From contig CAWCRS010000010.1 in the NCBI GenBank assembly GCA_963798085.1, positions 96,001 through 160,000 of the forward strand: DNA of 64,000 nt. Reading direction: 5' to 3'. Source of the stretch: an uncultured Gemmatimonadales bacterium. GTDB lineage: Bacteria > Gemmatimonadota > Gemmatimonadetes > Longimicrobiales > RSA9. Position numbers and translations under genes: made by a program. The first letter of the stretch is position 1. Every line of letters begins with the position of its first letter. Below are positions 3,477-22,586 of the stretch, one piece after another. The notes below the pieces were generated by a model. The model was not told the origin of the DNA and did not search any database. It saw only the letters and a list, made by a program, of their open reading frames with translations.

Positions 3477-6400
3477 TCATCGAGTGTGATGCTGTGGCTG
3501 CAGCGCGTCCTCGCGCAGCACGGCATCCAGCGTGCCGACCAGGCGATTGGCGTCGTCGCAGCCGAAGACCAGCGGCGGCTTGATCTTGAGCACGTTGTGG
3601 AACGGTCCGTCGGTGCTGATCAGGATGCCTGACTCGCGCATGCGGTTGGCGACGTGGGCTGCGTGCCGGCCGGCGGGCTCGCGCGTTGCGCGGTCACGCA
3701 CCAGCTCGACACCCACATAGAGCCCGCGGCCGCGCACGTCGCCGATCCGCTCGTGCGTCCGCATCAGCGCACGCAGTCCTGCCTGCAGCTGCTCGCCGGT
3801 GCGCAGCGCGTTGCTCTGCAGCTGCTCGACCTCGATCACATCCAGCACCGCCATGCCTACCGCGCACGACACCGGGTTTCCACCGAAGGTGTTGAAGTAC
3901 TCCATGCCGTTGGCGAATAATGCGGCGATTGCAGGCGACGTGATCACCGCGCCCAGCGGGTGCCCGTTGCCGATGGGTTTACCGACGGTGACAATGTCCG
4001 GGAGCGCGTTCTGCTCCTGGAACGCCCAGAAGTGAGAGCCAACGCGGCCCATTCCAGTCTGCACCTCATCCGCCACGCACACGCCGCCCGCCGCGCGCAC
4101 CGCGGCGAATGCTTGAGCGAGGAACCCCGCGGGCGGCACGATCTGGCCGGCGCATCCGGGCAGCGCCTCGGCGAAGAACGCGCCAATGGGCCGACCCGCC
4201 TCCCGTGCCTCGGCCATCGCCCTTTCGACGGCAGCCGCGTACAGGTGACCGGCCTCCGCATCGTTGCCGCGGAACGGACCGCGATAAGGATCGGGCGCGG
4301 GCGCGACGTGCACGTGCGCCGCGCGTCCCTCTCCGCCGGGTCCGTTGAACTTGTAGGGACTCAGCTCGATGAGCGCGCTGGTGTTGCCGTGGTACGCGCC
4401 GTCCAGCACCAGCACGTCGTGTCGCGCCGTATGCGCCCTCGCCATGCGCAGGGCCAGCTCGTTGGCTTCGCTGCCGGAGCAGACGAAGAAGCAGACGCGC
4501 AGCGGTTCCGGCAGTGTCGCGCTCAGTCGCTCGGCGTAGCGCACGAGGTTCTCGTGCAGGTAGCGCGTGTTGGTGTTCAGCACGCGGCTCTGGCGCTCGA
4601 GGGCCGCGACCACGTGCGGATGGCAGTGGCCGACATGCGCCACGTTGTTGACGGCGTCGAGGAAGGGCTGGCCGGCTTCGTCGTACAGGAACTGACGCCA
4701 GCCGCGCACCATGGTGAGCGGCCTGCGGTAGGCAATGCTGAGCGCGCTGCCAATGCTGCGGTCGCGCCGTTGCCGCAGCGTGCCGGCATCGGGCGAAGCG
4801 GCCGGGTGCAACCCGGGCAGTCTTAACAGCAGGTTGGGATCGGGCGAGAGCGCCAGCCACAGCGCGCGCTGGCCGGGGCGGGCCACACCGGGAAAGGTGC
4901 CTTCGAACCCGAACAGATCGGTGACCACCTGCACGTGCAGGTGCGGCGGCCAGCCGCCGTTGCCCGGCTGCCGGCCCACCTCGCCAATGCGCTGTCCGCG
5001 CTCGACCGGTTCCCCCGCCCGCAGCCCGGACAGGCAGTCCGGTGACAGGTGACCGTACAGCGTCCAGAAGGTCAGGCCATCGGCAACCGTGTGGCGCAGG
5101 ATGATGGTGGGGCCGTAGTCGAGCAGGCCGGCATTGTCCTGTACACTCTCCACAATGCCGGCGAGTGGTGCGAACACGTCTGTTCCGGCCGTGACGAACA
5201 GGTCGATGCCCAGGTGCACGGTCCGCCATTCGGGTCCGTGCGCAGTTTCCACGCGGAACGCATCCGTCGTGTACCAGCGCCTGACTTCATCGTAGCGCCC
5301 GATGCCGATGTCGGCGCCTGCCGCGTGCATGGCGCCGAAGATGGCGCGATCCCACCCGCCCAGGTCGCTCGCATCGGCGGGTCCTTCCGGAAGCGTGTCC
5401 GCAATGCCCAGCTCGAGAGTCAGCAGCTCCGGCGCCGCCGGCGGAACGCCGAGTACGGGAAAGGCATCGTCGCCTTCGTTCTTCAACCACTGGGAAACGC
5501 GTACCGCGTGAGCGCTGGGCGGCAGCCCGCAGGCCTGGCGCAGCACGCAGGCGGCGAAGCGCGGGTGCACGCCGGCCAGGCGCTCGAGGCAGGCCCAGGC
5601 CGGCGCCTCGCTCACAGACAGGTAGACATTCTCCGGATGCTGGCGCCGCTGTTCCGCGGACAGCACGACGCTCATGCAGAGACGCAGGCAGAGCAGCGGG
5701 AAGAGCGCCTCGATTTCCACTTCCGGCAGCGGGCAAACAGCGTGATAGCCATGCACCACATGCGCGGCCGTGCTCACCGGATCCGGAGAGTCCAATGCTG
5801 CGTACGCGGCGGCAATGGCCACTTCACCGGCGATCCAGGAGTGCATCACATCGCCGAAATCGAGCAGGCCGGTGACCCCGATCGGCTTCTGCGGATCGTC
5901 CGCGTCCAGCTCGCCGACCAGGATGTTGTAGTCGTTACCATCACCATGGATCACGCCCGTGCGCAATGCTGCGAACCGATCGCCGGACATATCGAACAGT
6001 TGCAGAAACGACTCGACGCGGGCGCGGCGCACGCGATCGGAGATGGCACCCAGGTGGGTGGCAATCACGGTGCGGCCCTGGCGCAGATCCCAGTACAGCT
6101 CGCGCTGCGCGCCCGGGTGGGTGAATCCCTCGAGCGCGCGATCCACCTCGCCCATCAGCGCGCCCACAGCGGTGAGCAAATCCGGTGTCAGGGGTCGCGT
6201 CCCTGCGAGTGGCCGTCCCGGCACCCAGTCGAGCAGGCGCACCGCGTGGGTTGCACCGGCCGCCGTGGTGAACCGGCCGGTCGCTTCGCCGGCGTGCGTG
6301 CGCAGCAGGCGAGGAAAGCGGAACCGCGAGGTCACGCCGGCCAGGCGATCGAGCAGCTGGTTCTGGCAGTCCAGCAGGCCGGGGTCTTCATTGGTCTGCG

Positions 6401-6614
6401 AGAACTTGAGCACGAAGTCGCCGCGCTCCGTGCGCAGCCGGAAATTCTGATCGCGCTCCGAGGGCAGAGGCTCCGGCGTCGCCTGCAATCCGTAGAGCTG
6501 GAACGCCACCGTGGCCGCTTCCAGGGCGCTCAACCGGGGCGGCCTGTGCCCCTCGCCGGTCGGACTAACAGTGGATTCAATGCCCGCCAGGGCGCGGCCT
6601 GCGCCCGTGCTCAT
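3477..6614 (-). CDS. phosphotransferase (APH/hydroxylysine kinase-like) + M23-like domain + class III aminotransferase fusion
   Basis: [10 protein letters not shown] and DFGD kinase motifs; HLGIDL and PPHLH M23 motifs; DEVQTGMGR and [12 protein letters not shown] motifs. Start codon uncertain. Confidence 0.88.
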
Positions 6615-7415
6615 GCGCCAGACCGCTGCGCTGTCAGACGGGCCGACATTCCACTGCGAAGCGGCCCGCTGGCAGTGTGCCGGGAGCGGTCGCCGTGAGA
6701 CCGGTGGCGCGGGCCAGAGGCATGAATTCGTCGAGCACCCAATGGCATCCATGGCGGGGCGACAGAGCGGCCTGAAGCTGCGCTTCGGCCCTGGTCGCGT
6801 CAAATGACAAGCACATGGCAGACGAGAACTCGCTCGGGATGCAGGCGGGGGTGCTTCCCTGCAATTGCCTGAACTTCAGCCGGGCGGGCGGGCGGGGGAA
6901 GGGTGCGCAAGTCGTTGGCGCCGACGCCTCACAGCATGTCGGGTTGCATATCTACGGGGGATTCCCTACCGTGCCGGAGAGGAAAACCTAATGTCGCGCC
7001 GTGTTGCGGCGTCTAACTTGACGCTCAAGCTGTGGGAACGAGGCTCGTGCGCACGATGCCTGAGGGCAGGCGTGGCCGGCCCGGGTTCTGCGGTTCGGAC
7101 TGCCGAACGACAATCCGAGCGGCTTCCCGAGCACTTCGGGAGGGAGCATGTGGCTGGCTCCGCGCGTGTTGTGGAATGCTGGTCTCCGGTGGGTCACTGA
7201 CGCTCTCGCGGGCGGACCGATCGTCGACCGTGCTGCAGTGCATGCGCTCCTGAAACACCTGCTCATCCATCCTGTTGCCATTCCATTCGTCGCCAATCCG
7301 TTGCTGGATCTGCCATGCATTGCGCTTCTGCAGGCAACGCACGAGCGGCCAGCGCGGTGCGCCATATCAGCACGACCGGCTGCCTGCCGGCCGCTCTTCG
7401 GAAGGGAGGGCGTAC

Positions 7416-8846
7416 ATGTATAGGGGTCGATGGAGTCTGGCTGCAGGTGCGCTCGTGTTTTCCGGACTGCTGGCTTCCGCCTGCGTGCGTACGGAGCGGG
7501 TGCTGGTGGACATTCCGCCCTACGAGAATCCGCCCACTGCCGCGCAGGGCTTCCTGGGTTACACCAACAGTGCGACCTCCAAACAGCCCGTTTGCGGCAA
7601 CTGCCACATCGGCCACTTCGAGGCGTGGAAGGGCACGCGGCATGCCAGCGCCTGGACGGACCTGCAGGCCAGCGGGCATGCGACCAATGCCTGCAACAAC
7701 TGCCATTCCGTGAGCGCGAACGGCAATCGGGTCACTGACTCCCTGGTTGCGTATGCGGCCACGAAGGACAAGCGGTACCAGGATGTGCAGTGTGAGAACT
7801 GCCATGGACCGGGGCTCGAGCATGTGACCAACCCGGACGCGACGCAGCCGCTGGCGTCCATCGTGGTGGGGACCGATCTCACCAGCGGTTGTGGCGAGTG
7901 TCATCGGGGAACGCACACGCCGTTCATCGAGGAGTGGACGCAGTCCGCTCACAACAACAAGCACGCGTCGCCGCAGACCAACGCCTCGTGCGTGCAGTGC
8001 CACGAGGCGCGCGGCATCTTCGCTGCCTGGGGCGTGAACACCAACTATCTGGAGAAGAACCAGACGACGCCGATCAACATCGGGTGTCCGGTCTGCCACG
8101 ACCCGCACGAACGGCGCAATCCGCATCAGCTCCGGTTCCCGATCAGCGATCCCAATGTCGACACCAACCTGTGCATGAAGTGTCATCACCGCCGGAGTGA
8201 GCCTGACCCGACCAAGGCCTCTTCCGGGCCGCACTCGCCGCAGGGGCCCCTGCTCCTGGGCGAGAGCGTCGGCTGGGTACCCCCTAACTTCACCTACACG
8301 GACAAGATCATCGGCACCCACGGCACGGAGGCGAACCCCGAGCTCTGCGCCGGCTGTCACGTCAGCGCTTTCAATGTGACGGACCCGGCCAGCGGCAACC
8401 TGGTGTTCCACGCCACCGGTCACCTGTTCAATGCGATCCCCTGCCTGGATTCGCAGGGAAAGCCGACGACATCCGACACCTGCCAGCTCTCCGAGCGCAC
8501 GTTCAAGGCCTGTGCCGCGAGCAGCTGTCACGGCACCGAGAGCGCAGCCCGCTCCGCGCTCACGGTGGCCCGCGGTCGCATTGACGATCTGGTCACTTCG
8601 CTCAACGCGCTGCTGAGCCGCGTCCCCAAGACGGAATTCGACGATAACGACGGCAAGCTGACGACAGCGGAGGGCGCCAAGTTCAATTCGGCGCTGGGCG
8701 CAATGGACGGCGCACCCATCCACAATCCGTTCCTGGTGGAGGCGCTGCTCACGGCCAGTATCAAGCAGGTCATGACCGATTACGGGCTGCAGGCTCCGCC
8801 CAGCCTCATCCTGGAGGACGTGCTGAGGGTGGAGGCCAGGCAGTAA
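7416..8846 (+). CDS. multiheme c-type cytochrome lipoprotein (8 CxxCH + 1 CX4CH)
   Basis: GGAGG RBS before ATG 7416; lipobox LASAC; CGNCH, CNNCH, CENCH, CGECH, CVQCH, CPVCH, CMKCH, CAGCH, CAASSCH; helical C-terminus with GAPIHNP. Confidence 0.92.
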   Translation: MYRGRWSLAAGALVFSGLLASACVRTERVLVDIPPYENPPTAAQGFLGYTNSATSKQPVCGNCHIGHFEAWKGTRHASAWTDLQASGHATNACNNCHSVSANGNRVTDSLVAYAATKDKRYQDVQCENCHGPGLEHVTNPDATQPLASIVVGTDLTSGCGECHRGTHTPFIEEWTQSAHNNKHASPQTNASCVQCHEARGIFAAWGVNTNYLEKNQTTPINIGCPVCHDPHERRNPHQLRFPISDPNVDTNLCMKCHHRRSEPDPTKASSGPHSPQGPLLLGESVGWVPPNFTYTDKIIGTHGTEANPELCAGCHVSAFNVTDPASGNLVFHATGHLFNAIPCLDSQGKPTTSDTCQLSERTFKACAASSCHGTESAARSALTVARGRIDDLVTSLNALLSRVPKTEFDDNDGKLTTAEGAKFNSALGAMDGAPIHNPFLVEALLTASIKQVMTDYGLQAPPSLILEDVLRVEARQ

Positions 8847-8908
8847 AGCAGCCCCGGATCGACGCAGACGAGCACACCCTGTTCGCAGGGAGGGACCTCG
8901 TATCAGCG

Positions 8909-9742
8909 ATGAGGCAGGCATCGCGGGCGGTGGCCGTCCTGGCGCTGGCACTAACCGCGTGTCAGAAGGCCGCCGCCCCTCCGGCGCAGGCTGGTGCTGA
9001 TTCGACCGCGGCAGCCGCGGCAACGGACACGGCGCCGGCCAGGGCGATCACGCCCATTCCCTTCGTCATGCGCACGAACCCGAACCGGTTCGCGCACTAC
9101 GCGCATCGTGGCGTCTCCTGCAGCACCTGTCACCCGGCGGTACCCGGCCACGGCAGGCACGGCGCGCTGGCCTGCTCCGAGTGCCACGAGCAGATCGGCG
9201 CCACCGCGACGGCAGCGCCGGTTACTTCCGTCGAGTGCAACGCCTGCCATCACGCCGCCGACCAGGCACGACCCTGCCTCGAGTGTCACGGCAGCGCACC
9301 GGCGGGCCCACTCGCCGTGCGCACGGCAGTGCGCGTGTCGGTGCGCCCGGCCACGGAGGAGCGCAGCCTCACCTTTGATCACGCGCGGCATCAGAGTCTG
9401 GCCTGTGGTGAATGCCATGCGGACAAGCCGCACGTGGGTGCGCCCCGACCCTGCAGCGCGTGTCATGATCGGCATCACCGGCCCGATGCGCAGTGTTCGT
9501 CGTGTCACCAGGCGGCGCTGCTGCCCATGCATGATCGCTCAGCCCACCGTGGCTGCGGGGGCAGTGGCTGCCATCAGGATCCGGTGGTAGCCAGCCTGCC
9601 GCTGACCCGTCCGGTGTGTCTCGTGTGTCATCGCGATCGGCAGGATCACGAGCCCGGCGAGAATTGCGCACGCTGCCATCTCCTGAGCACAGGCGACGGA
9701 CCGCGCAGCATTCCGGCCGCGCCGCGCGGGGAAGGGCGTTGA
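8909..9742 (+). CDS. multiheme c-type cytochrome lipoprotein (9 CxxCH + 1 CX4CH), cytochrome c3/c7-like
   Basis: Lipobox LALTAC; Ala-rich linker; FAHYAH and FDHARH c3-type motifs; 9 CxxCH plus CGGSGCH. Confidence 0.92.
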   Translation: MRQASRAVAVLALALTACQKAAAPPAQAGADSTAAAAATDTAPARAITPIPFVMRTNPNRFAHYAHRGVSCSTCHPAVPGHGRHGALACSECHEQIGATATAAPVTSVECNACHHAADQARPCLECHGSAPAGPLAVRTAVRVSVRPATEERSLTFDHARHQSLACGECHADKPHVGAPRPCSACHDRHHRPDAQCSSCHQAALLPMHDRSAHRGCGGSGCHQDPVVASLPLTRPVCLVCHRDRQDHEPGENCARCHLLSTGDGPRSIPAAPRGEGR

Positions 9743-11218
9743 TGCGACACCGCTCGAGCCTGGTGTTCGCCCTGGCTCTCTGGTCCGTCGCGGCCTCACG
9801 CGCAACTGCACAGAGCGCGCGCATTACCGGTGTGACCAGCATGCAGTACGTGCAGCTGCGTCCACTCGTGGAAGACAGTGTGTCCGTGCTGGACGCCATC
9901 GGTGATGGCCTCATCCGGCGCACGGCGAATGGACAGCTGGTGCGCTGCGTGACCGGTGTGCCGTACTGCCAGTTCACGCGCTCGGCGGCACGCACGGAAG
10001 TCGTACCCGTGATCCAGGACATCACGGTGAGCGCATGGGGCATTGGTCGCGGCGTACGCGTGTATGCGCAGCTGCGCACACGCGCCGCCGTGGGCGGTCG
10101 CAACGAACTCTGGCCGCAGGCGAATGATGCATTCGATGCACTCTCCGCATATGTCGAGCTGGATCGCACGCGCTTCCGTTTGCGGGGCGGCCGGCAATGG
10201 AAGACGTCGGGACTCGGCTACTACAACTTCAATGGTGCGTCGGTGCTGTTGCGCGCGCTGCCCGGCCTTTCTCTGGAGGCCTTTGGAGGCTGGAGCCTGG
10301 TTCGTGGTATCAACGAGCCCCTTACCAGCGAGTCGCTGACGGCGATCGAGGCATTCGCACCGAATGCGCGGTCCCTTCTCCTGGGCGCGCAGGCAAGCTA
10401 CCGGCCGGCGGCTTCACTCGGCCTGGGCGCACTCTACCAGCGCGAGATCCGCAGTGACCGTCTCGGCCTGTACACGGAGCGTCTGGCCACCAATGGCGTG
10501 TGGCGCTGGCGGCGCGGCTCCGTCAGCGCATCCATGCAGGCTGATCTCGCATCCCGCGAAGTGAATGATCGGGCGGTTGACCACCCGCTTCATTGTAAGC
10601 GACGCCATCAGTGCCAGCGCATTCGTGCGCACATACCGCCCGTTCTTCGAGCTGTGGACCATCTGGGGCGCGTTCGAGCCGGTCGGCTTCACGGAAGCGG
10701 GTGTTGGCGGATCATGGCAGGACCCGAAGAACGCACTCGTGCTGAACCTCGACGTCGCGCGTCGCGGGTACGCGGACACGCACACCAGCACGGCCTTCGG
10801 CACCTACGAATCATCGGGCTGGACCGCCGCAGCGACCGGGTCGCTGCGGGCAAGGCGCGACTGGTTGGTGCAGGGTGATTATCGCATTGACTTCGGCTTC
10901 GGCGCCTCGCGCAGTGAGGCGAGCCTGCGCGTCCAGCGTGACATCGCGGATGGCACGTATGTAGGCGCCAGCGTCATGGGATTCCAGCAGCAGTTCGAGT
11001 TCCGGGTGGCTGATGGCACCGTGTTCGGTGCGGGCGCCGATGGTGCCCTGCGACTGGGGCCGCGCACACGGCTGAGCGCTTCCCTGTTGAACTACTGGCA
11101 TCGCGGCACCAGCGGATTGCCTGACGTGGACTGGGGTCAGTTGCGCGGGCGGCTGCAGTTCGAGTGGACCATCGGGCCGGAGCCGGGAGTACGCCTGGCC
11201 GGCGGAGGTACCCAATGA
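9742..11218 (+). CDS. putative outer-membrane beta-barrel (porin); apparent frameshift near 10570
   Basis: Signal peptide MRHRSSLVFALALWSVAASRATAQ; alternating amphipathic strands and a RGGRQW motif; ATG overlaps upstream TGA; frames 9616 and 10565 join if one base is removed near 10570; ~490 aa. Confidence 0.75.
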
Positions 11219-12627
11219 CGTCGCGCGCGGGCATCATCACCGTCGCGCTCCTGCTTGCCACCGGCGTCTCGGCGCAGCAGCGCCCGCCCGCGCAGGACAC
11301 CTTCCCGCATCTCACACACGCGCGACTGTTCCCGTTGTGCGATGCGTGTCACGCGGGCATCAGCAGTGGCGTCCGGGCGGATGCGTTCCCGACGCCAGCG
11401 AATTGCGCGTCGTGCCATGATGGGCAGCGCGTGCGCCGGGTTTCGTGGTCGGGACGGGCGGCGCGTGCGTCCAACCTGAATTTCGCGCATCCCCGGCACA
11501 TCCTCGCGATCCGCAACGCGGGGGACTCGCTGGATTGCGCCGGCTGTCACTCCACGGGGGATACGGCGCGCATGGCGGTCGGCCCGCCGGATCCGAACGC
11601 CTGCACGGGCTGCCACGCGCACCAGGCGCCCGGGCACCTGAGTCCGGGGCGCGATTGTTCGACCTGCCATCTCCCGCTCACGGCCGCGACATCCCTGAGC
11701 GCTGCGCGCGTGTCGGCTTTCCCGAAACCCGCCAGCCACCAGGCGCCCGACTTCCTGCTTCAGCACGCGCCGGGTTCCGCCGTGGACCGGACTTCGTGTG
11801 CGACCTGCCATGCCCGCGAGAGCTGCGCCCGCTGCCACCTCAATGCGGATTCGGTTCCGGCTATCGCTGCGTTAGGCCGCGATGCGCGCGTGGCGGCTCT
11901 GGCACGCGACAGAGCCCCCGTATACCCGCAGCCGGCCAGTCACAGCACTTCGGTATGGCGTGCGAAGCACGGCGCGGAGGCGGTCGCGAACGTGGCGCAA
12001 TGCGCGAACTGCCACGCGAGGTCGAGCTGCACCGCGTGCCATCGCGACCGGGCGCCGCCCGAGGTGAGCCGCCTGCCGGTGTCAGGCGAGGCCGATCAGC
12101 GGGGCGTCGTGCTTCCGGCCCGGGTCACGCAGATCCACCCCGCAGGCTTCGTGAAGCTGCATGGGCCGGAAGCCGCCACCATGGAAACTTCCTGCCAGGC
12201 GTGTCACGCTTCGGCGTTCTGCGAGAAGTGTCACGCCGGGCCGGTTTCGCCCTCCTTCCACGCACCCAACTTCCTTGCGCGGCACGGGCCCGATGTCTAT
12301 GCCAATGACATCGAGTGCACATCCTGTCACAACCCCGAGGTCTTCTGCCGCGCGTGTCATGCGGGGTCGGGACTGGCGTCGAGGGGACGCCTGGGCGTCG
12401 CCTTCCATACGGCGAATCCGCTCTGGATCGTGGGCCACGGCGGCGCTGCGCGGCAGGGGCTCGAAGGGTGCGCATCGTGCCACCAGCAGTCGTTCTGCAC
12501 GCAATGCCATTCCGCGACCGCGGGCTGGCGCATCAATCCGCACGGTCCCGGCTTCAACGCGGCGCAGATCGAGAAGGCCAATCCTCTGACCTGTCGCCTT
12601 TGTCACGCGGGAGGCCCACCGCGATGA
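11215..12627 (+). CDS. periplasmic 16-heme c-type cytochrome
   Basis: Signal peptide MTSRAGIITVALLLATGVSAQ; 16 CxxCH motifs counted; ATGA overlap with porin stop. Confidence 0.93.
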   Translation: MTSRAGIITVALLLATGVSAQQRPPAQDTFPHLTHARLFPLCDACHAGISSGVRADAFPTPANCASCHDGQRVRRVSWSGRAARASNLNFAHPRHILAIRNAGDSLDCAGCHSTGDTARMAVGPPDPNACTGCHAHQAPGHLSPGRDCSTCHLPLTAATSLSAARVSAFPKPASHQAPDFLLQHAPGSAVDRTSCATCHARESCARCHLNADSVPAIAALGRDARVAALARDRAPVYPQPASHSTSVWRAKHGAEAVANVAQCANCHARSSCTACHRDRAPPEVSRLPVSGEADQRGVVLPARVTQIHPAGFVKLHGPEAATMETSCQACHASAFCEKCHAGPVSPSFHAPNFLARHGPDVYANDIECTSCHNPEVFCRACHAGSGLASRGRLGVAFHTANPLWIVGHGGAARQGLEGCASCHQQSFCTQCHSATAGWRINPHGPGFNAAQIEKANPLTCRLCHAGGPPR

Positions 12628-13976
12628 CGCAACAGCTCGCCGCATCCCGCGGCAAGGAACGCGCTGTGCGTTGCCGCTTCGCGCGCCGCGCGCGCGGGCT
12701 GATCCGGCTCGCGCTCCCGTTCCTTCTGCTTTCGAGCGCGAGCACGACCGTGTCGGCACAGCAGCTGCGGCCGGAGCGGTGCGCGGAGTGCCACAGCAAG
12801 CTGAGTGACGATCGGCTCTCGAAGCCCGCTCGCCTTTTCCCGACCGACATTCACGCGCAGAAGGGGTTCGGCTGTCTGGCCTGCCACGGCGGCGCCGCAG
12901 GTCACGACGCGGCCGCCGGCTTCCTCAGCAAGCCGGAACGCCGGGACATCCCCCGCCTGTGCGGTCAGTGTCACTCCGATGCGCAGTACATGAAGCAGTT
13001 CAACCCCGCGCTGCGCACGGATCAGGTGTCGGAGTACTGGACGTCGGTGCACGGGCATCGGCTCGCGGAAGCGAACGACCCGAACGTGGCGACCTGCGTG
13101 GACTGCCACCGCGTGCACGAGATCCGGCCGCCCAACGATCCGAAGTCCAGCGTGTTCCCGCTGAATGTGGCCGAGACCTGCGGCCATTGCCACGCCGACG
13201 ACAAACGCATGGCGCAGTACAGGATACCGACCGATCAACTGAGCAAGTGGCGACAGAGCGTGCACGGGCGGCTGATGTCGGAGAAGGAAGACCTCTCGGC
13301 GCCGACCTGCAACGATTGTCACGGCAATCATGGCGCAACGCCGCCCGGCATCGGCTCCATCCGCAATGTGTGCGGCCAGTGTCACGCCACTAACGCCGAT
13401 TTCTTCAGCGCAAGTGGTCACGTCGAGATCTTCGAAAAGGCGGGATTGCCCGGCTGCGAGACCTGCCACAGCAATCACGCGATCATGCCGGTGAGTGACG
13501 ATATCCTGGTGCGGCGCAATGACGAGGTCTGCCGCCGCTGTCATGCTCAGAATGACACGCTCGGCGGCGAGTTTCGCGCCATGGCGCTGTTGCTCGATTC
13601 GCTGAAGACCAGCTTCGATGAGAGCCAGCAGATTCTGCGCGACGCCGCCAATGGCGGAATGGAAGTCAGCCAGGCGCAATTCGAGCTGGAGGATGTGAAC
13701 AACGCGCTCACCAAGGCGCGTTCGTCCATCCACACATTCCATGTCGAACCCGTCAGAACGAATGTGGAAGCCGGCCTCAAGCTCACGGCCGCCGGCATCG
13801 CGCGTGGCCGCGACGCGCTGGGCGAGCATACGTTCCGCCGCCAGGGCCTGGCCCTGAGCGGTCTCGTGATTCTGCTGCTCATTACGGGCCTGCTTCTGAA
13901 GATCCGGCAACTCGAAGCGCGCAGCGCGCACGCCAACGGTGCAGCGGGCAGCCTGGAGGAGGACACGCATGGCTGA
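12624..13976 (+). CDS. membrane-anchored 9-heme c-type cytochrome (probable cytochrome c subunit of Rieske/cyt b complex)
   Basis: 9 CxxCH; YWTSVHG / WRQSVHG repeats; helical region and C-terminal TM helix GLALSGLVILLLITGLLL; ATGA overlap. Confidence 0.92.
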   Translation: MTQQLAASRGKERAVRCRFARRARGLIRLALPFLLLSSASTTVSAQQLRPERCAECHSKLSDDRLSKPARLFPTDIHAQKGFGCLACHGGAAGHDAAAGFLSKPERRDIPRLCGQCHSDAQYMKQFNPALRTDQVSEYWTSVHGHRLAEANDPNVATCVDCHRVHEIRPPNDPKSSVFPLNVAETCGHCHADDKRMAQYRIPTDQLSKWRQSVHGRLMSEKEDLSAPTCNDCHGNHGATPPGIGSIRNVCGQCHATNADFFSASGHVEIFEKAGLPGCETCHSNHAIMPVSDDILVRRNDEVCRRCHAQNDTLGGEFRAMALLLDSLKTSFDESQQILRDAANGGMEVSQAQFELEDVNNALTKARSSIHTFHVEPVRTNVEAGLKLTAAGIARGRDALGEHTFRRQGLALSGLVILLLITGLLLKIRQLEARSAHANGAAGSLEEDTHG

Positions 13977-14421
13977 CAGAAAAGCTGAACGGGTTACGCG
14001 CAAGCATTTCGTCGACTGGCTGATCGGCTCCAGCCTGGGCGGATTCCTGGTCGCCGTATTCTATCCGGTCACGCGCTACCTGATTCCGCCGCCGGTGAAA
14101 GAGGCGTCCGTCGGGTCTGTCACGGCGCCGTTCCAGCCCGGCGACCTGCCGGCGAATTCCGGCAAGATCTTCAAGTTCGGCAACGTGCCGGGCATCCTCG
14201 TCCGCACGCCGGCGGGTGAACTGCGCGCATTCTCGGCGCGCTGCACGCATCTCGCCTGCACGGTGCAGTATCGTGACGACCTGAGTCAGATCTGGTGCGC
14301 GTGTCACAACGGTCATTATGACCTGAACGGGCGCAATGTGGCTGGTCCTCCGCCACGCCCGCTCGAATCCTACGACGTCGCCGTGCACGGCAACGAAATC
14401 GTCGTGCGGCGCCGGGCCTGA
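13969..14421 (+). CDS. qcrA: Rieske 2Fe-2S protein of a cytochrome bc complex
   Basis: CTHLAC and CACHNGHY boxes, GPPPRPL; N-terminal Tat-like TRKHFV followed by TM helix; GGAGG RBS. Confidence 0.93.
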
Positions 14422-14429
14422 CGGCAGCC

Positions 14430-15506
14430 ATGGTACGCGAGCGATTCTCCGCACTGATCCACTGGCTGGACAACCGCATTGGGGTCAGCGGCCTGGCGCC
14501 GCTGGCGCGCAAGAAGAAGGTGCCGGTGCACCGCCACACGTTCTGGTACTACATGGGCGGGATGCTGGTCTTTCTGTTCATGCTGCAGGTTTCCACGGGC
14601 GTGCTTCTCCTGTTCTACTACCGTCCCAGTGCCGAGCACGCGTACGAATCCGTGCAGTTCCTGATGGCGGAAGTGAAGTTCGGCTGGCTGGTGCGGTCGA
14701 TTCACGCGTGGGGCGCGAACCTCATGATCTTCATGATCTTCGTGCACCTGTTCAGCGTGATGCTGCTCAAGGCCTATCGCAGCCCGCGCGAGCTGACGTG
14801 GCTGTCCGGCGCCCTGCTGCTCATGGTGGCTCTCGGCCTGGGCTTCACCGGTTATCTGCTGCCCTGGAACACACTCTCCTTCTTCGCCACACGCGTGGGC
14901 ACCGAAATACCCGGTGTGCTGCCCGGGGTCGGCCAGTTCATCCGCCAGTTCCTGCGCGGCGGCGAGGACATCAGCGGCGCCACGCTCACGCGCTTCTATG
15001 CGCTGCACGTCTCGGTGCTGCCGGGAATGGCCATCATGCTCATCGGCCTGCACGTGCTGCTGGTGCAGAAGCACGGCATGAGCGTGCCGCCCGGCGTGGA
15101 GAAGCAGGGCGGGAAAATGCGCAGCATTCCCTTCTTCCCTAACTTCCTGTTACGCGACCTGGTGGGCTGGCTGTCCGCGCTCACCATTCTGGCCGCGCTG
15201 GCGGCGTTCTGGCCGGCCGAGCTGGGTCAGAAGGCGGATCCCTTCGCGCCGGCCCCCGCCGGCATCCGGCCCGAATGGTACTTCATGTTCCTGTTTCAGA
15301 CGCTGAAATACCTGCCCGCGAAGATTCTGGGAATCGATGGCGAGCTGATCGGCATCGCGGGATCCGGCATCGCGGCGGTCGTGCTGCTGATCGTTCCCTT
15401 CGTGGATCGCCGCTCCAGCAGGCTCTGGACCTTCGTGGCCTGGGGCGCCCTCCTGTACATCATCGTGCTGACCACGCTCGGCTACATGGCCAATCCGGAG
15501 AGCTGA
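14430..15506 (+). CDS. qcrB: cytochrome b subunit of bc complex (b6 + subunit IV fused)
   Basis: RSIHAWGAN...[22 protein letters not shown]...GLH, IRPEWYF motifs. Confidence 0.95.
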
Positions 15507-15510
15507 CGCG

Positions 15511-16227
15511 TCACGCCGACTGCAGGTGACGGTGGCGCATCGCCAGGTGCAGCAGCACGACTTCGACGGGCAAGGCGGCCCATATGGTGATGCCCAGTGC
15601 CAGCAGCGCCGCGCCGGCGGCTGACACACGCGCATTCGTCCACCAGATTTCGGGACGGATGATCACCAGTGCAACCAGCAGCACGGTGAATGTCGTGATG
15701 CCCAGCACTGCGCCCCAGCGCCGCTCCGGCCAGCGTTGCACGGCATTGCTCACCGCACGCCACGCTTCACGCGCACACCAGCCGCACACCACCGCTCCCG
15801 CCACCCAGCCGAGTGCCGCCCCACCGATCAGGAACGGCTGGTGTACTGCGATCGCCCAGCGCGAGATGGAGATCCACAGCGTGATCATGAAGCTCACGAG
15901 AACGGCAGGAATGGCCCAGATCAGGCCTGCAATCGCCGCAGCAGCAGCGCGACGCCGGCTCATATCCGCGGACCGACCAAGGACACCGAGCACGCTGCCG
16001 TGAAGCAGGCCGAGCAACGTCCCCGCAAGGAACATGAACTGCGTGACATCGGCGCCGGCGGTGACGACGAGCGGATTGATCATGGCGGGCAGAGCGACCA
16101 GAAAGCCGCCCAGGACAATGCCCCCTGCCATGCCCGACGCCAAAACAAGACGGCCCGGCAGGCCGGGGCCGGAGATCAGGCAGGCGCGAACTTCTGAGGC
16201 GAACTTCGCAGACCTCGTCTCGTCCAT
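15511..16227 (-). CDS. hypothetical integral membrane protein (~6 TM)
   Basis: Multiple hydrophobic segments; GGAGG RBS upstream; stop faces the cytochrome b stop. Confidence 0.7.
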   Translation of the reverse strand: MDETRSAKFASEVRACLISGPGLPGRLVLASGMAGGIVLGGFLVALPAMINPLVVTAGADVTQFMFLAGTLLGLLHGSVLGVLGRSADMSRRRAAAAAIAGLIWAIPAVLVSFMITLWISISRWAIAVHQPFLIGGAALGWVAGAVVCGWCAREAWRAVSNAVQRWPERRWGAVLGITTFTVLLVALVIIRPEIWWTNARVSAAGAALLALGITIWAALPVEVVLLHLAMRHRHLQSA

Positions 16228-17280: not shown

Positions 17281-17764
17281 GGTAGACCGCCTTGAGAAGC
17301 GCTATCTGGTCTGCGGCTTTCATGCCTGCCGGAGTCTCTGATGCGGATCAGACCAACCGACGAATCACGACCGCGCGTGCCGCTATACTCTACGTGAATC
17401 CTGCCAGAAGGATCCATTTCACCTGAAAGCGCAGTTTACGAAGTCTCGCGCGGCGGCAGTATCAGCATATCGTCGAAACTCCGTCGCAATCAGCCTACCT
17501 GCCGGGTCAGGGACTGGAGTACCGGAGCGCCGCCGCCATTCCGTGCCACCTGCGCCGCCATTTCGGCGGCACCTCATTAACACTTTGTTATAGAGGCGGC
17601 AGGCGGCCGCTGCTGGTTTGCGCCGGCGGCGCCTCGACTCTTTCCGGGCCCGCGCATTGCTCCGTGCCCGCGACAGTTCTACCTTGCACATACCGGATCG
17701 CGCTCGGCCCAGGATGATCCGTGCGCGTTCCGGGGCAATCGCAACGCCCACCGCCCTGGATATC

Positions 17765-19540
17765 ATGCGACGACTGCGACCTCGACCTCCGTACGCATCC
17801 GTCCTGCTCCTCGCCGTGACACTGGCCGCGGCCTGTGCAGCGCGGCAGACACCCGCACGCACGGCGCCCTCGCCACAGCCGGCCGCGGCAACGCTGTACC
17901 AGCCTTCCCGCGCGCTGGGTGCGCTGTTCCGCGATGTGCAGCTGAGCCGCACGTTTCCGGACTCGAAGACATTCGTGGATGCGAGACCCAGGCTGCCCGC
18001 GCCCGAAATCGACGCGCGCTACGACTCCGCGCGCGATGCTGCCGGCTTCGACCTGCATGCGTTCGTCGCACAGTACTTCGTCCTGCCACAGTCGCGTGCG
18101 ACCGCGTTCCACACGGACTCGTCGAATTCCATGGAGCAGCACATCCGCGCGCTGTGGCCGGTGCTCACGCGCCCGGCCGATTCCGCACACGTGCGTTCTT
18201 CCCTGATTCCACTGCCGCACCCCTACGTGGTGCCGGGCGGTCGGTTCCGCGAGATCTACTACTGGGACTCGTACTTCACGATGCTCGGGCTGGTGACCAG
18301 CCAGCGCACGGACCTGATGCGTGACATGCTCGACAATTTCGCGTACCTGATCGCGCGCTTCGGGCATATCCCGAATGGCAATCGCACGTACTATTTGAGC
18401 CGCAGCCAGCCACCGTACTTCGGCGCCATGGTAGCGCTCTATGCGGCGGCCACCGACACAGCGAGTGCGCTGCCGTATCTGGGTGCGCTGGAGGCGGAGC
18501 ACGCATTCTGGATGGATGGTGCGGATCGTATCTCGCCGGGCCAAGCCTACCGTCGCGTGGTGCGCCTGCCCGATGGCTCGCTGCTCAACCGCTACTGGGA
18601 TGACCTTCCGGAGCCGCGACCCGAATCGTACCGCGAAGACCATGCACTGGCACAGCAGCTTCCCGCAGACCGGCGCGCGGCGTTCTATCGCAATATGCGC
18701 GCTGCCGCGGAGAGCGGCTGGGACTTCTCCAGCCGCTGGATGCGCGATCCCGCGGACCTGCGTTCCCTGGAAACCACAGAACTCGCGCCGGTCGATCTGA
18801 ACAGCCTGTTATACTGCAGCGAGCGCGTCAGCGCGGCGCTGCGCACGTTTCGCCATGGCCCCGGCAATGCCGCAGTGGCGCAGCGCTTCGCCGCGGCGGC
18901 GGCTGAGCGGCGGCGCGCACTGCTGGCCGCCGCATGGGATCCGGCGGACAGCTTCTTCTACGATGTGCGCTGGCGCAGCGCTGCGCGTGTCACCGATCGG
19001 CCGACCATGGCGGCTGCGGCGCCGCTGTACTTCGGTCTGGCCACGCTGGCGCAGGGCCGCGCTGTGGCGGCACGGCTGGAGCGGAATTTCCTGAAGCCCG
19101 GCGGCTTCGTGACTACAGGCATCCGCTCCGGCCAGCAGTGGGATGCGCCCAACGGCTGGGCGCCTCTGCAATGGCTGGCCGTCGAAGGGCTGCGGCGCTA
19201 CGGCCGCGCGGCTCTGGCGGACACGGCCCGGGCGCGCTGGCTCGCCCTCAATCGCAGGACGTATCAGGCGACCGGCCGCATGACCGAGAAATACGATGTC
19301 ACCGACCTCCAGCGCCCTGCGGGCGGCGGCGAGTACCCCACGCAGGATGGCTTCGGCTGGACCAACGGCGTGGACCTCGCCTTCTCCATCGGCTTCCCGT
19401 TCCCGATGGGGTCCGGCGAGCAGCGCGACCGCCCGCGCCGGCCGACTCGCCGGGCCCGGGCGGCGTTGCGTCTTACACCTCGAGCCGGTCCTGCGGCCTC
19501 GCCACGAGCAGGTAGAGCGCGGGCATCAGCAGGATACTGA
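17765..19540 (+). CDS. treA: alpha,alpha-trehalase (GH37), lipoprotein-type signal
   Basis: FPDSKTFVD, VVPGGRFREIYYWDSYF, YYLSRSQPP, AAESGWDFSSRW, QQWDAPNGWAPLQW, GGGEYPTQDGFGWTNG; lipobox LAAAC. Confidence 0.95.
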   Translation: MRRLRPRPPYASVLLLAVTLAAACAARQTPARTAPSPQPAAATLYQPSRALGALFRDVQLSRTFPDSKTFVDARPRLPAPEIDARYDSARDAAGFDLHAFVAQYFVLPQSRATAFHTDSSNSMEQHIRALWPVLTRPADSAHVRSSLIPLPHPYVVPGGRFREIYYWDSYFTMLGLVTSQRTDLMRDMLDNFAYLIARFGHIPNGNRTYYLSRSQPPYFGAMVALYAAATDTASALPYLGALEAEHAFWMDGADRISPGQAYRRVVRLPDGSLLNRYWDDLPEPRPESYREDHALAQQLPADRRAAFYRNMRAAAESGWDFSSRWMRDPADLRSLETTELAPVDLNSLLYCSERVSAALRTFRHGPGNAAVAQRFAAAAAERRRALLAAAWDPADSFFYDVRWRSAARVTDRPTMAAAAPLYFGLATLAQGRAVAARLERNFLKPGGFVTTGIRSGQQWDAPNGWAPLQWLAVEGLRRYGRAALADTARARWLALNRRTYQATGRMTEKYDVTDLQRPAGGGEYPTQDGFGWTNGVDLAFSIGFPFPMGSGEQRDRPRRPTRRARAALRLTPRAGPAASPRAGRARASAGY

Positions 19541-22500
19541 TGAACAGACGGGAGAACAGACCGCTCACGATCACCATGGCGAACGGCCGTTGCGAGTCGG
19601 TACCCACGCCGTGCGACAGCGCCGCGGGCAGCAGGCCGAGTGCCGCCACGAGCGCGGTCATCATGATGGGACGAAGACGCAGCACGGCCGCTTCGCGCGT
19701 CGCCTGGAAGATGCCCGCGCCTTCCTTGCGCAGCTCGTTGGCGTAGGAGATGTAGACCACGGCCGTCTGCACGGACACGCCGAACAGTGCGATGAAACCG
19801 ATGCCCGACGACACCGAGAAAGGCGTGTGTGTGAGCCAGAGAATGATCAGCCCGCCAATGGGCGCCGAGAGCACCACGCCGATGACCGTGATGAGCGGGA
19901 ACTTGAAGTTGGAGTAGAGCGCGAACAGCAGCAGGAAGATCACGAAGAGCGCCAGTGGCAGCACGATCTGCAGCTGCCGGCGTGACGCCTGGTACTCCTG
20001 ATACTCGCCGCCCCAGACAATGTGGTATCCGGCCGGGAGCTTGACCTGCTGACTCACCTGGCGCTGTGCATCCTGCACTGCACCGGCCAGATCGCGCCCC
20101 TCGACGGAATACTGGATGCCGATGAAGCGCCCATTGTCCTGGCGGTAGATGAAGGACGCGCCGTTCGCGACCTTGATGTCGGCCAGCTCCTTGAGCGGGA
20201 TGTGCTGGCCATCGGGCGTGGCTACCAGGATGTTGCCGATCGCCTCCGGCGTTTCGCGGAAGCGCGGCTCGAGGCGCACGACCAGATCGAACACCCGCTC
20301 ACCCTGCACGACGTCGCTCGCGGAGACACCGCCCACCGCGGCTTCGATCAGCTTGTTGATGTCATCGACATTCAGCCCGTAACGCGCAATGCGTGCGCGG
20401 TCCGGCGTAACCGTCAGGCTGGGCTGTCCCAGCTCCTGCACCAGCGTCAGCTCACGGATGCCGTCGACGCCGCCCAGCACACGCTTGATCTGCTTGCCCG
20501 TGGTCTCGAGCGTATCGAGGTCGGGTCCGAAGACTTTCACGTCGAGTGCGCTCTTCAGGCCGGTCTCTGCTTCGTCGACTGCATCCTCCGCAGGCTGCGT
20601 GTAGTTGAAGATGATGCCCGGGTACTGCCGCAGCTTCTGATCGATCGCAGCGATCAGTTCGCTCTTGTCGTGATACTTGCCGTGCCACTGGCCGTACGGC
20701 TTGAGGCCCACGAAGAACTCGGCATTGAAAAAACCCGTGGGGTCCGTGCCGTCATCGGGCCGCCCGTGCTCATCCGTGACGTTGGTGACCTCATCGAACG
20801 ACTTCAGAATGGCGCGGAACTGCGGTACCAGTGCGGACGACTCGTCGAACGAGATGGTGTAGGGCATGGTGGCGCGCACCCAGAGCGAGCCTTCGTCGAG
20901 GTGCGGCATGAATTCCGCCCCAATGCCGGGAATGAGCAGCAGCGATGCGCCGAAGATGGCGACGGACAGTGCGACGGTGAGGCGAGGCCGGGCGAGGCAC
21001 CAGTCGAGCGTCGCTGCATAGCGCTCCTTCACCCATTCGAATATCGGGTTGCGGCGCTCGCGCACGCCGTGGCGCAGCACCCACGCGCACAGCACGGGGA
21101 TCAGCGTGAGTGTTGCAATCAGTGCACCGACCAGTGCATAGATCGTGGTGTCCGCCATCGGCCGGAACAGCTTTCCCGACGGACCGGTCAGCGCGTAGAT
21201 CGGCAGGAACCCGGCCACGATCACCGCCACCGCGTAGAAGATCGGGCGATCCACTTCGCCCGCGGCCGCGACGATCACATCGCGAACGCTGTACTCGGTG
21301 CCGTGCCGCAGTGCCAGTTGCCGATGGATGTTCTCGACCATCACCACGGTGCCGTCGACCAGGATGCCGAAATCGATGGCGCCGATGGACAGCAGGTTCG
21401 CCGGGATGTTGCGCAGGTCCAGGCAGATGAACGCGAACAGCAGCGCGATCGGGATGGCGGCCGCGACGATCAGACCGGAGCGCAGGTCGTAGAGGAAAAA
21501 CACCAGCACCACAATGACCAGCACAATGCCGCGCAGCAGGTTGTCTTCCACCGTGTGCGTGGTCAGGTCCACGAGATTGCTGCGGTCGTAGAAGGGGTGG
21601 ATTCTGACGTCGCGTGGCAGCAGCGAGTCGTTCAGCTGCCGGGTCTTCGCTTCCACCGCCTTGAGCACGGTCTGCGCCTGCTCGCCCTTGCGCATGAGGA
21701 TGACGCCTTCGACGGCGTCATTGCGGTCATTGAAGCCGAACTGGCCGAGACGGGGCGCGTGGCCGATCGCGACCCTGCCCACATCCTTCACCAGCACGGG
21801 CGTGCCGCTGTGCGTCGCCAGCACGACGTTGCCGATATCCTCCAGCGTGCTGATGCGTCCCAGACCGCGTACGTAGTAGAACTGCCCGCCTTCCGAGTAG
21901 AAGCCGCCGCCCGTGTTGCTGTTGTTAGCGCTCAGCGCGTCGACGACATTGCCCACGGAGAGTCCTGTCGCGGCCAGGCGCGCGGGATCGAGGAGCACCT
22001 GGTACTGCATGGTCTCGCCGCCCAGCGGCGAGTCATCGGCAACGCCGGCCACCGAGCGGTACTGCCGCACGATGAACCAGTCGTTCAGGATCTTCAGGTC
22101 CATGGCCGACTGGTCGGGACTGTCCAGCACGTAGCGGTAGACCAGGCCGGAAGGCGAGAAGAGCGGATCGACGCCGGGACTCACGCCTTCCGGGATCTCG
22201 GCGTCGGGCAGGCGTTCGAACACCTGCTCGCGCGCGAAGTAGCTGTCCGTGCCATCCTCGAACGTCATGCGGATGGAGGACAGTCCATACAGCGAGATCG
22301 AGCGGATGATGCGCATCTTCGGGATGCCGTTCATTTCCGTCTCGATGGGAACTGTAATAAGGCGTTCGACTTCCTCCGCCGCGTGCCCGGGCCACTGTGT
22401 CGTGACTTCGACCAGGGGAGGCGAGAGATCCGGATACGCGTCCACGGGCAGGCGTCTGAACGACCAGATGCCGGCCCCGATCAGCAGCAGACTGAACAGC

Positions 22501-22586
22501 CCGACCAGGAACTGCTGGCGCAGTGACGCGGCGACAATGCCGTTGATGAGCGACGCGGCGCGCGACTCGTGTCTTTCCTCGCTCAC
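19473..22586 (-). CDS. CusA/CzcA family heavy-metal efflux RND transporter
   Basis: LPVDAYPD, ANLLSIGAIDFGILVDG, GKLFRPMA, RLRPIMMTALVAALG; 1037 aa. Confidence 0.95.
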   Translation of the reverse strand: MSEERHESRAASLINGIVAASLRQQFLVGLFSLLLIGAGIWSFRRLPVDAYPDLSPPLVEVTTQWPGHAAEEVERLITVPIETEMNGIPKMRIIRSISLYGLSSIRMTFEDGTDSYFAREQVFERLPDAEIPEGVSPGVDPLFSPSGLVYRYVLDSPDQSAMDLKILNDWFIVRQYRSVAGVADDSPLGGETMQYQVLLDPARLAATGLSVGNVVDALSANNSNTGGGFYSEGGQFYYVRGLGRISTLEDIGNVVLATHSGTPVLVKDVGRVAIGHAPRLGQFGFNDRNDAVEGVILMRKGEQAQTVLKAVEAKTRQLNDSLLPRDVRIHPFYDRSNLVDLTTHTVEDNLLRGIVLVIVVLVFFLYDLRSGLIVAAAIPIALLFAFICLDLRNIPANLLSIGAIDFGILVDGTVVMVENIHRQLALRHGTEYSVRDVIVAAAGEVDRPIFYAVAVIVAGFLPIYALTGPSGKLFRPMADTTIYALVGALIATLTLIPVLCAWVLRHGVRERRNPIFEWVKERYAATLDWCLARPRLTVALSVAIFGASLLLIPGIGAEFMPHLDEGSLWVRATMPYTISFDESSALVPQFRAILKSFDEVTNVTDEHGRPDDGTDPTGFFNAEFFVGLKPYGQWHGKYHDKSELIAAIDQKLRQYPGIIFNYTQPAEDAVDEAETGLKSALDVKVFGPDLDTLETTGKQIKRVLGGVDGIRELTLVQELGQPSLTVTPDRARIARYGLNVDDINKLIEAAVGGVSASDVVQGERVFDLVVRLEPRFRETPEAIGNILVATPDGQHIPLKELADIKVANGASFIYRQDNGRFIGIQYSVEGRDLAGAVQDAQRQVSQQVKLPAGYHIVWGGEYQEYQASRRQLQIVLPLALFVIFLLLFALYSNFKFPLITVIGVVLSAPIGGLIILWLTHTPFSVSSGIGFIALFGVSVQTAVVYISYANELRKEGAGIFQATREAAVLRLRPIMMTALVAALGLLPAALSHGVGTDSQRPFAMVIVSGLFSRLFISILLMPALYLLVARPQDRLEV

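Follow-up and report, generated by a model that had tools for sequence, protein, structure and literature searches.

Clusters that place an outer-membrane barrel gene beside multiheme cytochrome genes include MtrCAB, with its quinol dehydrogenase CymA, of Shewanella (PDB 6R2Q), MtoAB, PioAB, the porin-cytochrome (Pcc) clusters of Geobacter (OmbB-OmaB-OmcB; PMC4245776), and PCC3 and PCC4, single clusters proposed to span the whole envelope (PMC5566968). Clusters combining porin, multiheme, and Rieske/cytochrome b genes are also already in print: extHIJKLMNOPQS of Geobacter encodes a Rieske protein (ExtO) and a cytochrome b (ExtP) alongside a porin and several multihemes (PMC5877670), and in karst metagenome-assembled genomes a porin-cytochrome complex is colocated with cytochrome b and Rieske genes (petB/petC) (PMC13264449). 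Here we describe a seven-gene operon, g1 to g7, at positions 7416-15506 of a 64,000-nucleotide stretch (the window; positions 96,001 to 160,000 of contig CAWCRS010000010.1) from an uncultured Gemmatimonadales bacterium (assembly GCA_963798085.1). The operon is real, conserved, and coherent. With a probability of roughly 0.6, we read it as an outward, Rieske-fed conduit from menaquinol to the cell surface; a trans-envelope conduit running in either direction is quite likely. New here is the combination of an unnamed barrel of about 22 strands, a 16-heme wire, a lipoprotein with the OcwA fold, and a Rieske/cytochrome b entry module. The features are as follows.

7416..8846, + strand: g1, 9-heme lipoprotein (8 CxxCH + 1 CX4CH), candidate terminal reductase, 476 amino acids (aa)
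8909..9742, + strand: g2, 10-heme lipoprotein (9 CxxCH + 1 CX4CH) with a long Ala/Pro-rich tether, 277 aa
9742..11218, + strand: g3, outer-membrane beta-barrel of an unnamed family, ~490 aa, in two frames in the assembly
~10570, + strand: single extra base breaking the g3 frame (both frames compared with 12 homologues)
11215..12627, + strand: g4, 16-heme secreted cytochrome (16 CxxCH), 470 aa
12624..13976, + strand: g5, 9-heme cytochrome (9 CxxCH) with a C-terminal membrane anchor, 450 aa
13969..14421, + strand: g6, Rieske [2Fe-2S] protein (PF00355), 150 aa
14430..15506, + strand: g7, fused b6-type cytochrome b (PF00033 + PF00032), 358 aa

As in MtrCAB/CymA, MtoAB, and PioAB, a secreted multiheme is modelled inside an outer-membrane barrel; also shared with MtrCAB/CymA are a multiheme lipoprotein, the candidate partner at the surface, and a source of electrons in the form of a quinol dehydrogenase. 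The operon differs from MtrCAB in its barrel (no PF11854 match; about 22 strands versus 28 predicted for MtrB [PMC4245776]), in the heme number of g4 (16 versus 10), in the fold of g1 (that of OcwA, not of MtrC), and in its quinone module, which here lies inside the operon and is a Rieske/cytochrome b complex. Membership in MtrCAB was rejected, as there is neither a PF11854 barrel nor a TIGR03508 decaheme. The Geobacter Pcc clusters are closer in predicted strand number (18 to 22) and likewise combine a multiheme of the periplasm with outer-membrane multihemes whose CX3-5CH motifs are atypical, in some cases with a quinone-reactive cytochrome linked to them; their periplasmic partners, however, carry 5 to 14 hemes, and the accessible text of that paper contains neither "Rieske" nor "Gemmatimona" (PMC4245776). 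In PCC3 and PCC4 the inner-membrane part is instead a 5-helix HX13H protein, and "Rieske" does not occur in the accessible text (PMC5566968). The karst clusters are centred on decahemes or undecahemes in the groups described, and the accessible part of the paper does not name Gemmatimonadota among the carriers (PMC13264449). The Geobacter ext cluster, although similar in gene content, has a porin, ExtI, with 12 predicted strands, a split ExtP/ExtQ where g7 is fused (PMC5877670), and two elements, the rhodanese ExtH and the seleno-cytochrome ExtKL, without a counterpart among the seven genes. The g7 product scored 210 bits against the ExtP model (cutoff, 290). Assignment to ExtHIJKL was thus rejected: g7 is fused and below the cutoff, and no rhodanese or seleno-cytochrome gene is present. 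We found no description of the barrel family or of a Gemmatimonadota conduit in the open-licence literature (subscription papers and preprint supplements were outside the search), nor in the accessible text of PMC11495043, PMC11237511, and PMC9671151.

Open reading frame (ORF) and motif counts reproduced the seven same-strand genes, their heme numbers (42 CxxCH plus 2 CX4CH in total), and the four overlapping junctions reported in the initial annotation. The overlaps are TGATG at 9740-9744 (g2/g3), ATGA at 11215 (g3/g4) and 12624 (g4/g5), and 8 nucleotides (nt) at 13969 (g5/g6); g1 and g2 are separated by 62 nt, and g6 and g7 by 8 nt. That annotation had made its reading depend on gene order being conserved in related genomes, and the seven-gene set recurs in 29 of the 60 related loci with at least 3.5 kb of downstream sequence, so the arrangement is not due to chance. 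The named matches listed cover the best 80 of 354 loci and the best 120 of 673 proteins. Nearly all loci with the closest barrels (79/80) were titled as Gemmatimonadota lineages, and none of the named matches listed came from a cultured isolate. No sigma-70-type promoter and no convincing terminator were found between 6700 and 16500. Upstream of g1 homologues, FNR and CRP boxes occurred at chance level (8 and 15 of 120 regions versus 5.9 and 12.5 in shuffled sequences). A Rex-like box was found in 4 of the 120 regions (0.35 when shuffled), the window not being among them; for all three boxes, we assumed the consensus patterns.

The initial annotation also depended on the 9742-11218 product being a beta-barrel, a point that modelling bears out. 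The AlphaFold2 model of an intact g3 homologue, P0003 (69-row alignment; predicted local distance difference test score [pLDDT] of 87.6, predicted template modelling score of 0.80), had about 22 alternating strands, counted from the secondary structure, and a small disulfide-bearing insertion after strand 1. Its structural matches were outer-membrane barrels (best Z 18.5; root mean square deviation [rmsd], 5.5; 395 aligned residues). MtrB, which has 26 strands in its solved structure, was no outlier among them (Z 15.0; rmsd 6.9; 375 aligned). By sequence, no Pfam or NCBIfam model covered the family: any one model matched at most 3 of the 69 members at E ≤ 0.05. The MtrB family, PF11854, matched none of the 69 at this threshold and was not found in the host genome either. 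A 145-row barrel profile had no PDB sequence match at E ≤ 1. The named homologues were Gemmatimonadota hypothetical proteins, an Atlas search returned unnamed clusters only, and a search of a plasmid collection gave one weak partial match, which we disregarded.

To place the family, we surveyed 251 genomes of the phylum, comprising 234 of the window's class and 17 of other classes. The barrel was present as a strong match (E < 1e-60) in 109 of the 234 and as a weak match in 6 of the 17. The weak matches are true relatives of the barrel (hhalign probability, 99.2), and all six are followed by genes for 11 to 14 hemes. These distant relatives (L168 to L173) are about 410 aa long and are followed by lipoprotein multihemes as well; two of them, L170 and L171, from another class, also carry the g6-g7-g5 set. 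No Geobacter-named protein appeared among the matches to the distant relatives.

The 16-heme protein encoded by g4 is the invariant neighbour of the barrel and also its modelled partner. In all 126 distinct loci that offered enough downstream sequence, the gene or genes just after the barrel carried at least 9 hemes, and in 107 they carried exactly 16. The g4 product begins with a signal-like stretch lacking Cys. When g3 and g4 orthologues from locus L054 (52 to 58% identical to those of the window) were cofolded, the pair scored 0.70, compared with 0.00 for the best of three controls; runs agreed in at least 71% of contacts, with a partner pLDDT of at least 75. The mark used was reached by 116 of 157 solved pairs and 2 of 215 mismatched pairs, counts that are only roughly valid for these alignments. 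The modelled interface comprised g4 residues 284-441, that is, hemes 10 to 16, plus a few residues at 225-233. Strand residues of the barrel touching g4 were polar (mean hydropathy of -1.8; n = 36), and those lying in between were hydrophobic (+1.3; n = 23), which places g4 inside the modelled lumen. The most conserved barrel loop took part in the tightest contacts. The prediction thus supports binding and has g4 threading the barrel with its last seven hemes in the lumen. Of the general hallmarks of porin-cytochrome systems, a barrel gene beside multiheme genes is therefore observed here and a multiheme within the barrel is predicted. Alone, g4 had no PDB sequence match, and its profile matched c3/c7-type modules only. 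As to the MtrA/DmsE family (TIGR03508), g4 had no NCBIfam match and g1 reached 34 bits against a cutoff of 192. The earlier view that the components are not obviously MtrA or MtrB holds: the barrel lacks PF11854, and g4 lacks an NCBIfam match and has 16 hemes.

The strongest genomic argument for a path from the quinone pool to the outer membrane is that three unrelated quinone modules occur beside this one barrel. Among 101 distinct loci with full context (out of 134), the gene preceding the barrel encoded a 10-heme protein in 28, all 28 with g7 located 3 to 6 kb downstream, and a 20/21-heme protein in 40, none with g7 downstream; the other 33 had different arrangements, 2 of them with g7. The 20-heme protein is NapC/NrfH-like, with CxxCHxM at heme 1 in 26/26 sequences and PF03264 at E ≤ 0.001 in 16/26 (5 above the cutoff). 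CxxCHxM is the NrfH motif (bioRxiv 2022.01.10.475773). The third module, found in four loci, is a 19-heme protein fused to an FdnI/b561-type domain (4/4, mostly below the cutoff), the layout of CbcL/MtrH (PMC6295460). At loci L151, L152, L154, and L159, a 19-heme CbcL/MtrH-like protein directly precedes the barrel, and the 16-heme gene is replaced by shorter or split multihemes. Upstream of the barrel at L138, L139, and L141 lies a divergent Rieske-like/cytochrome b pair in which the Rieske protein lacks the cluster-binding motifs and the cytochrome b lacks PEWY; L138 and L141 have a second, intact pair downstream.

This exchange of modules suggests a role for g2. The initial annotation had also made its reading depend on the lipoprotein cytochromes not being inner-membrane or periplasm-facing enzymes. 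A lipobox-like motif is present in 27 of 31 ten-heme homologues, and g2 aligns to hemes 11/12-19/20 of the 19/20-heme membrane-anchored protein at the same position in sister operons (27/27), matching the last nine hemes of the 20-heme form. Because it matches hemes 12 to 20 of a protein anchored in the inner membrane, g2 is probably a periplasmic relay. A surface protein was rejected on the same homology, to the periplasmic arm of the 20-heme NapC-like protein. The Rieske/cytochrome b trio, for its part, is optional and, by its distribution, mostly restricted to a single clade of the family. In a FastTree phylogeny of the 101 barrels, which does not include the window's broken copy, 29 of 30 Rieske-linked loci fell in a single clade of 32 (support, 96).

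Within this trio, g6 and g7 have intact motifs. The cluster ligands of g6 (CxHxxC and CxCH) were invariant in 32/32 sequences. At what we take, from the bc1 motif, to be the position of the hydrogen-bonding Ser, g6 has Gly in all 32, and the Tyr is kept in 23, with Phe in the other 9. Loss of this Ser lowers the Rieske potential by ~130 mV (PMC12954380). We predict from these residues a low-potential, menaquinol-type Rieske protein, and we estimate its centre to lie near +100 to +150 mV. In g7, which has seven hydrophobic segments, the heme b ligands (His92/106/193/208) and the PEWY motif of the Qo site were likewise invariant (32/32). Its closest solved sequences are cytochrome b6; the gene is fused rather than split into b6 and subunit IV, and Tyr stands where b6 has the heme ci Cys, so that g7 departs from the cytochrome b6f type. 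The low-potential Rieske sequence, together with the futalosine genes of the host, points to g6/g7 as a menaquinol-oxidizing complex. The g5 product has one hydrophobic segment, at residue 406, and may take the place of cytochrome c1/f; of 80 loci, the 31 that have its gene are also those that have the Rieske gene. In the accessible text of PMC3509893, Gemmatimonadetes Rieske/cytochrome b complexes appear just as a phylogenetic group.

A g7-type cytochrome b was present in 21 genomes of the class, and the barrel was present in 21 of these 21 (17 within 30 kb) versus 109/234 overall. It is very unlikely, in our judgment, that g5-g7 form a general-purpose complex III that merely adjoins a conduit fed by NapC-like proteins encoded elsewhere. 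Such an arrangement would agree with g7 being the only PF00033 match in this 90% complete genome, with NapC-like multihemes on contigs C8 and C1, and with the 4 of 21 genomes whose g7-type gene lies outside the 30 kb around the barrel (three on other contigs, one far away). However, the g4/g5/g6 junctions overlap, every class genome with the g7-type gene has the barrel, an alternative complex III is available for aerobic respiration, and the distant relatives L170 and L171, in another class, adjoin the same g6-g7-g5 set.

The candidate terminal reductase, g1, was observed in 64 of 80 loci. Its closest matches in sequence and in fold were OmhA and OcwA. The family profile matched OmhA (6QVM) at E = 1.7e-19 over profile positions 75-436 of 460 and OcwA (6I5B) at 4.7e-15, with nitrite reductases far behind (1.2e-3). 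The model (pLDDT, 87.4) matched OcwA with Z 16.9 (rmsd 3.4; 326 aligned), OmhA with Z 15.7 (3.8; 347), and NrfA with Z 13.7 (3.8; 236), and had the nine-heme core, nine hemes as in OcwA, and the C-terminal three-helix bundle of OcwA and OmhA. There are nine conserved non-motif His positions. The distal His-His pairs at two open hemes that are conserved in OcwA/OmhA (PMC9250108) are only half kept: by sequence alignment to OmhA, the first His is present in 55/64 and 53/64 homologues, and the second in 20/64 at one site and 0/64 at the other. OcwA and OmhA further differ from g1 in being porin-independent surface proteins of Gram-positive bacteria, whereas g1 is a lipoprotein (lipobox-like motif in 61/65 homologues) with a CX4CH ninth heme. 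As modelled, g1 is OcwA-like in fold without being a strict family member. OcwA is a cell-surface terminal reductase that reduces anthraquinone-2,6-disulfonate (AQDS), flavins, and, slowly, nitrite (PMC6703420), and OmhA was the sole cytochrome recovered from the cell and magnetite surfaces (PMC7829351). By analogy, g1 is a candidate surface reductase; the lipobox is silent on the membrane face, and a surface position is what the analogy suggests. No CxxCK catalytic heme of the NrfA/ONR type was present in g1. A nitrite reductase was rejected on this ground and on the profile, which is far closer to OmhA/OcwA.

The same fold raises the alternative of a periplasmic reductase like that of Geobacter ExtHIJKL-MNOPQS, in which g1 would reduce a soluble N, S, or Se compound, fed by the bc complex and the multihemes, with the barrel as substrate channel or scaffold. 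We consider this rather unlikely. The NrfA/OcwA-superfamily fold, with two pocket positions that each retain one His, speaks for it, as does the Geobacter precedent, where a cluster with porin, multihemes, Rieske protein, and cytochrome b has a periplasmic enzyme. Against it, g4 fills the lumen of the barrel in the model, a multiheme follows the barrel in 126/126 loci and g1 is present in just 64/80, g1 lacks CxxCK, and ExtI has 12 predicted strands versus ~22 in the g3 family.

Taken as a conduit to the surface, the operon would work as follows. Menaquinol oxidation would take place at the g7/g6 Qo site, with a proton-translocating Q-cycle as the presumed mechanism (the motifs are intact), and the Rieske centre would pass electrons to the membrane-anchored 9-heme g5, as gene linkage and the anchor suggest. 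The tethered 10-heme g2, homologous to the periplasmic arm of the NapC-like protein, would relay them across the periplasm; the 16-heme g4 would conduct them across the g3 barrel, in whose lumen the last seven of its hemes are modelled; and g1, at the surface, would pass them on, whether to metal oxides, to chelated Fe(III), to humic quinones, or to a partner cell. Here the parts, their motifs, and their linkage are read from the sequence, and the barrel, the g4 insertion, and the g1 fold from models; we infer the g5-g2-g4 order, the location of g1, the outward direction, and the acceptor. A Rieske centre near the potential we estimate would restrict this version of the conduit to fairly high-potential acceptors. 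The acceptor would need to lie above roughly +100 mV, presumably favouring Mn oxides, chelated Fe(III), and oxidized humics over crystalline Fe oxides. The Rieske-fed version would conserve more energy per electron than the NapC-type versions. The initial annotation had proposed a whole path from the quinone pool through a bc-type complex to the surface; the barrel model and the conserved gene order support it, and for its function and direction the probability stated at the outset applies. More tentatively, and at somewhat less than even odds, one barrel/16-heme wire may be plugged into three interchangeable quinone modules in an undescribed family found in nearly half of the sampled Gemmatimonadetes, with 44 hemes, and no soluble shuttles, connecting the Q-cycle of the present operon to a surface reductase that is OcwA-like.

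The same wire could also run inward: electrons drawn from Fe(II), from reduced humics, from minerals, or from partner cells would pass by way of g1/g4 to the quinone pool, with the Rieske/cytochrome b complex reversed. Porin-cytochrome conduits and NapC/MtoC-type modules serve Fe(II) oxidizers (PMC5566968, PMC6295460, and the ImoA preprint), and the genome encodes terminal oxidases. We nevertheless regard inward flow as unlikely, given that the genome, 90% complete, yielded no RuBisCO in a search limited to this fixation route and that g1 resembles terminal reductases.

Several observations weigh against an outward, Rieske-fed conduit. The modules themselves leave the direction of electron flow undecided, because NapC- and CbcL/MtoC-like modules are found in both reducers and oxidizers (PMC6295460; bioRxiv 2022.01.10.475773). 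The association of the 10-heme g2 with the Rieske genes (28/28 versus 0/40) comes essentially from one clade and represents about one event, and a test on independent pairs had four pairs only and no power. The cofold, made on orthologues 52 to 58% identical, may partly echo the solved MtrAB geometry. The fold of g1 is shared with periplasmic N/S enzymes (NrfA, Z 13.7), and OcwA itself is a slow nitrite reducer. The most similar published cluster, extHIJKLMNOPQS, serves a periplasmic enzyme, a seleno-cytochrome polysulfide reductase (PMC13510729), and its porin, ExtI, is not needed for Fe(III) reduction (PMC5877670, PMC13510729). Finally, the barrel gene of the window is broken in this assembly.

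The break in g3 is probably an assembly error. All 12 homologues compared are uninterrupted across the site near 10570, and 69 intact barrel homologues (484 to 558 aa) are available. In 240 kb tested in the same assembly, we counted 16 frame breaks for which two or more loci gave support (26 with support from any locus), the g3 break included. At this rate, ~1 per 15 kb, one break in an 8-kb operon is expected. Two of three heme-copper oxidase loci and the ActB-like gene of the alternative complex III are also broken. One public sequencing run shared 0.14 of the words and yielded near-identical contig pieces, none of those listed spanning 10570; no RNA data set was among the runs listed. That the frameshift is genuine and this copy of the operon inactive in this strain, with no bearing on the family, seems quite unlikely: the break does stand in the assembled sequence, and an intact paralogous barrel lies on contig C7 of the same genome, yet the remaining six genes are intact with full heme counts, and frame breaks are frequent in this assembly, extending to the oxidase loci and the ActB-like gene.

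The paralogous set (L045; C7:619196-625331) is a second g1-g2-g3-g4 arrangement without a quinone module, in which g2 is of a 9-heme type lacking a lipobox and g4 apparently loses its reading frame past the 13th heme. The host genome further encodes heme-copper oxidases, futalosine menaquinone genes, and cytochrome c assembly genes. The alternative complex III set (L174; C10:67456-75087), with a pentaheme, an ActB-like gene in two pieces, NrfD/ActD, and a monoheme, lies on the same contig, ~21 to 29 kb ahead of the window. Two places distant from any barrel of the family, C8:32759-35081 and C1:68100-69512, encode NapC/NrfH-like membrane multihemes, one type with 20 hemes and interrupted by a frameshift, the other with 11 hemes. 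At C7:483959-488196 (L176), adjacent ORFs with 19 and 27 CxxCH are followed by a long ORF without a Pfam match, possibly another conduit, and C4:37400-47089 (L177) encodes 10-, 8-, and 5-heme proteins with a cyclic nucleotide monophosphate-binding/4Fe-4S protein. NiFe-hydrogenase large-subunit loci at C7:970533-972083 and C5:450701-452257 are possible electron donors. In the window, the operon is flanked by a divergent gene (3477-6803, - strand) for a fusion of an APH phosphotransferase, an M23 peptidase domain, and a class III aminotransferase, and by a convergent gene (15511-16227, - strand) for a 238-aa hydrophobic protein without a Pfam or NCBIfam match. Beyond these lie a trehalase (17618-19540, + strand) and a resistance-nodulation-division (AcrB-type) transporter (19473-22586, - strand).

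With no Pfam or NCBIfam model matching it, the barrel family is missed by name-based annotation, although it is present in 109 of 234 genomes of the class. If the family does conduct electrons, bacteria that are abundant and mostly regarded as aerobic heterotrophs have a part in the redox cycling of metals and humics. Respiration of minerals or humics would then extend to a widespread phylum that is not known for it, with the module chosen by the potential of the acceptor, and an OcwA-like surface reductase would occur outside the Gram-positive metal reducers, where alone such proteins have been characterized so far. The operon raises the questions of whether extracellular respiration can run on a Rieske/cytochrome b complex with the energy yield of a Q-cycle and whether a protein with the OcwA fold can cap an outer-membrane conduit. 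Because it is compact and self-contained, both are directly testable by heterologous expression.

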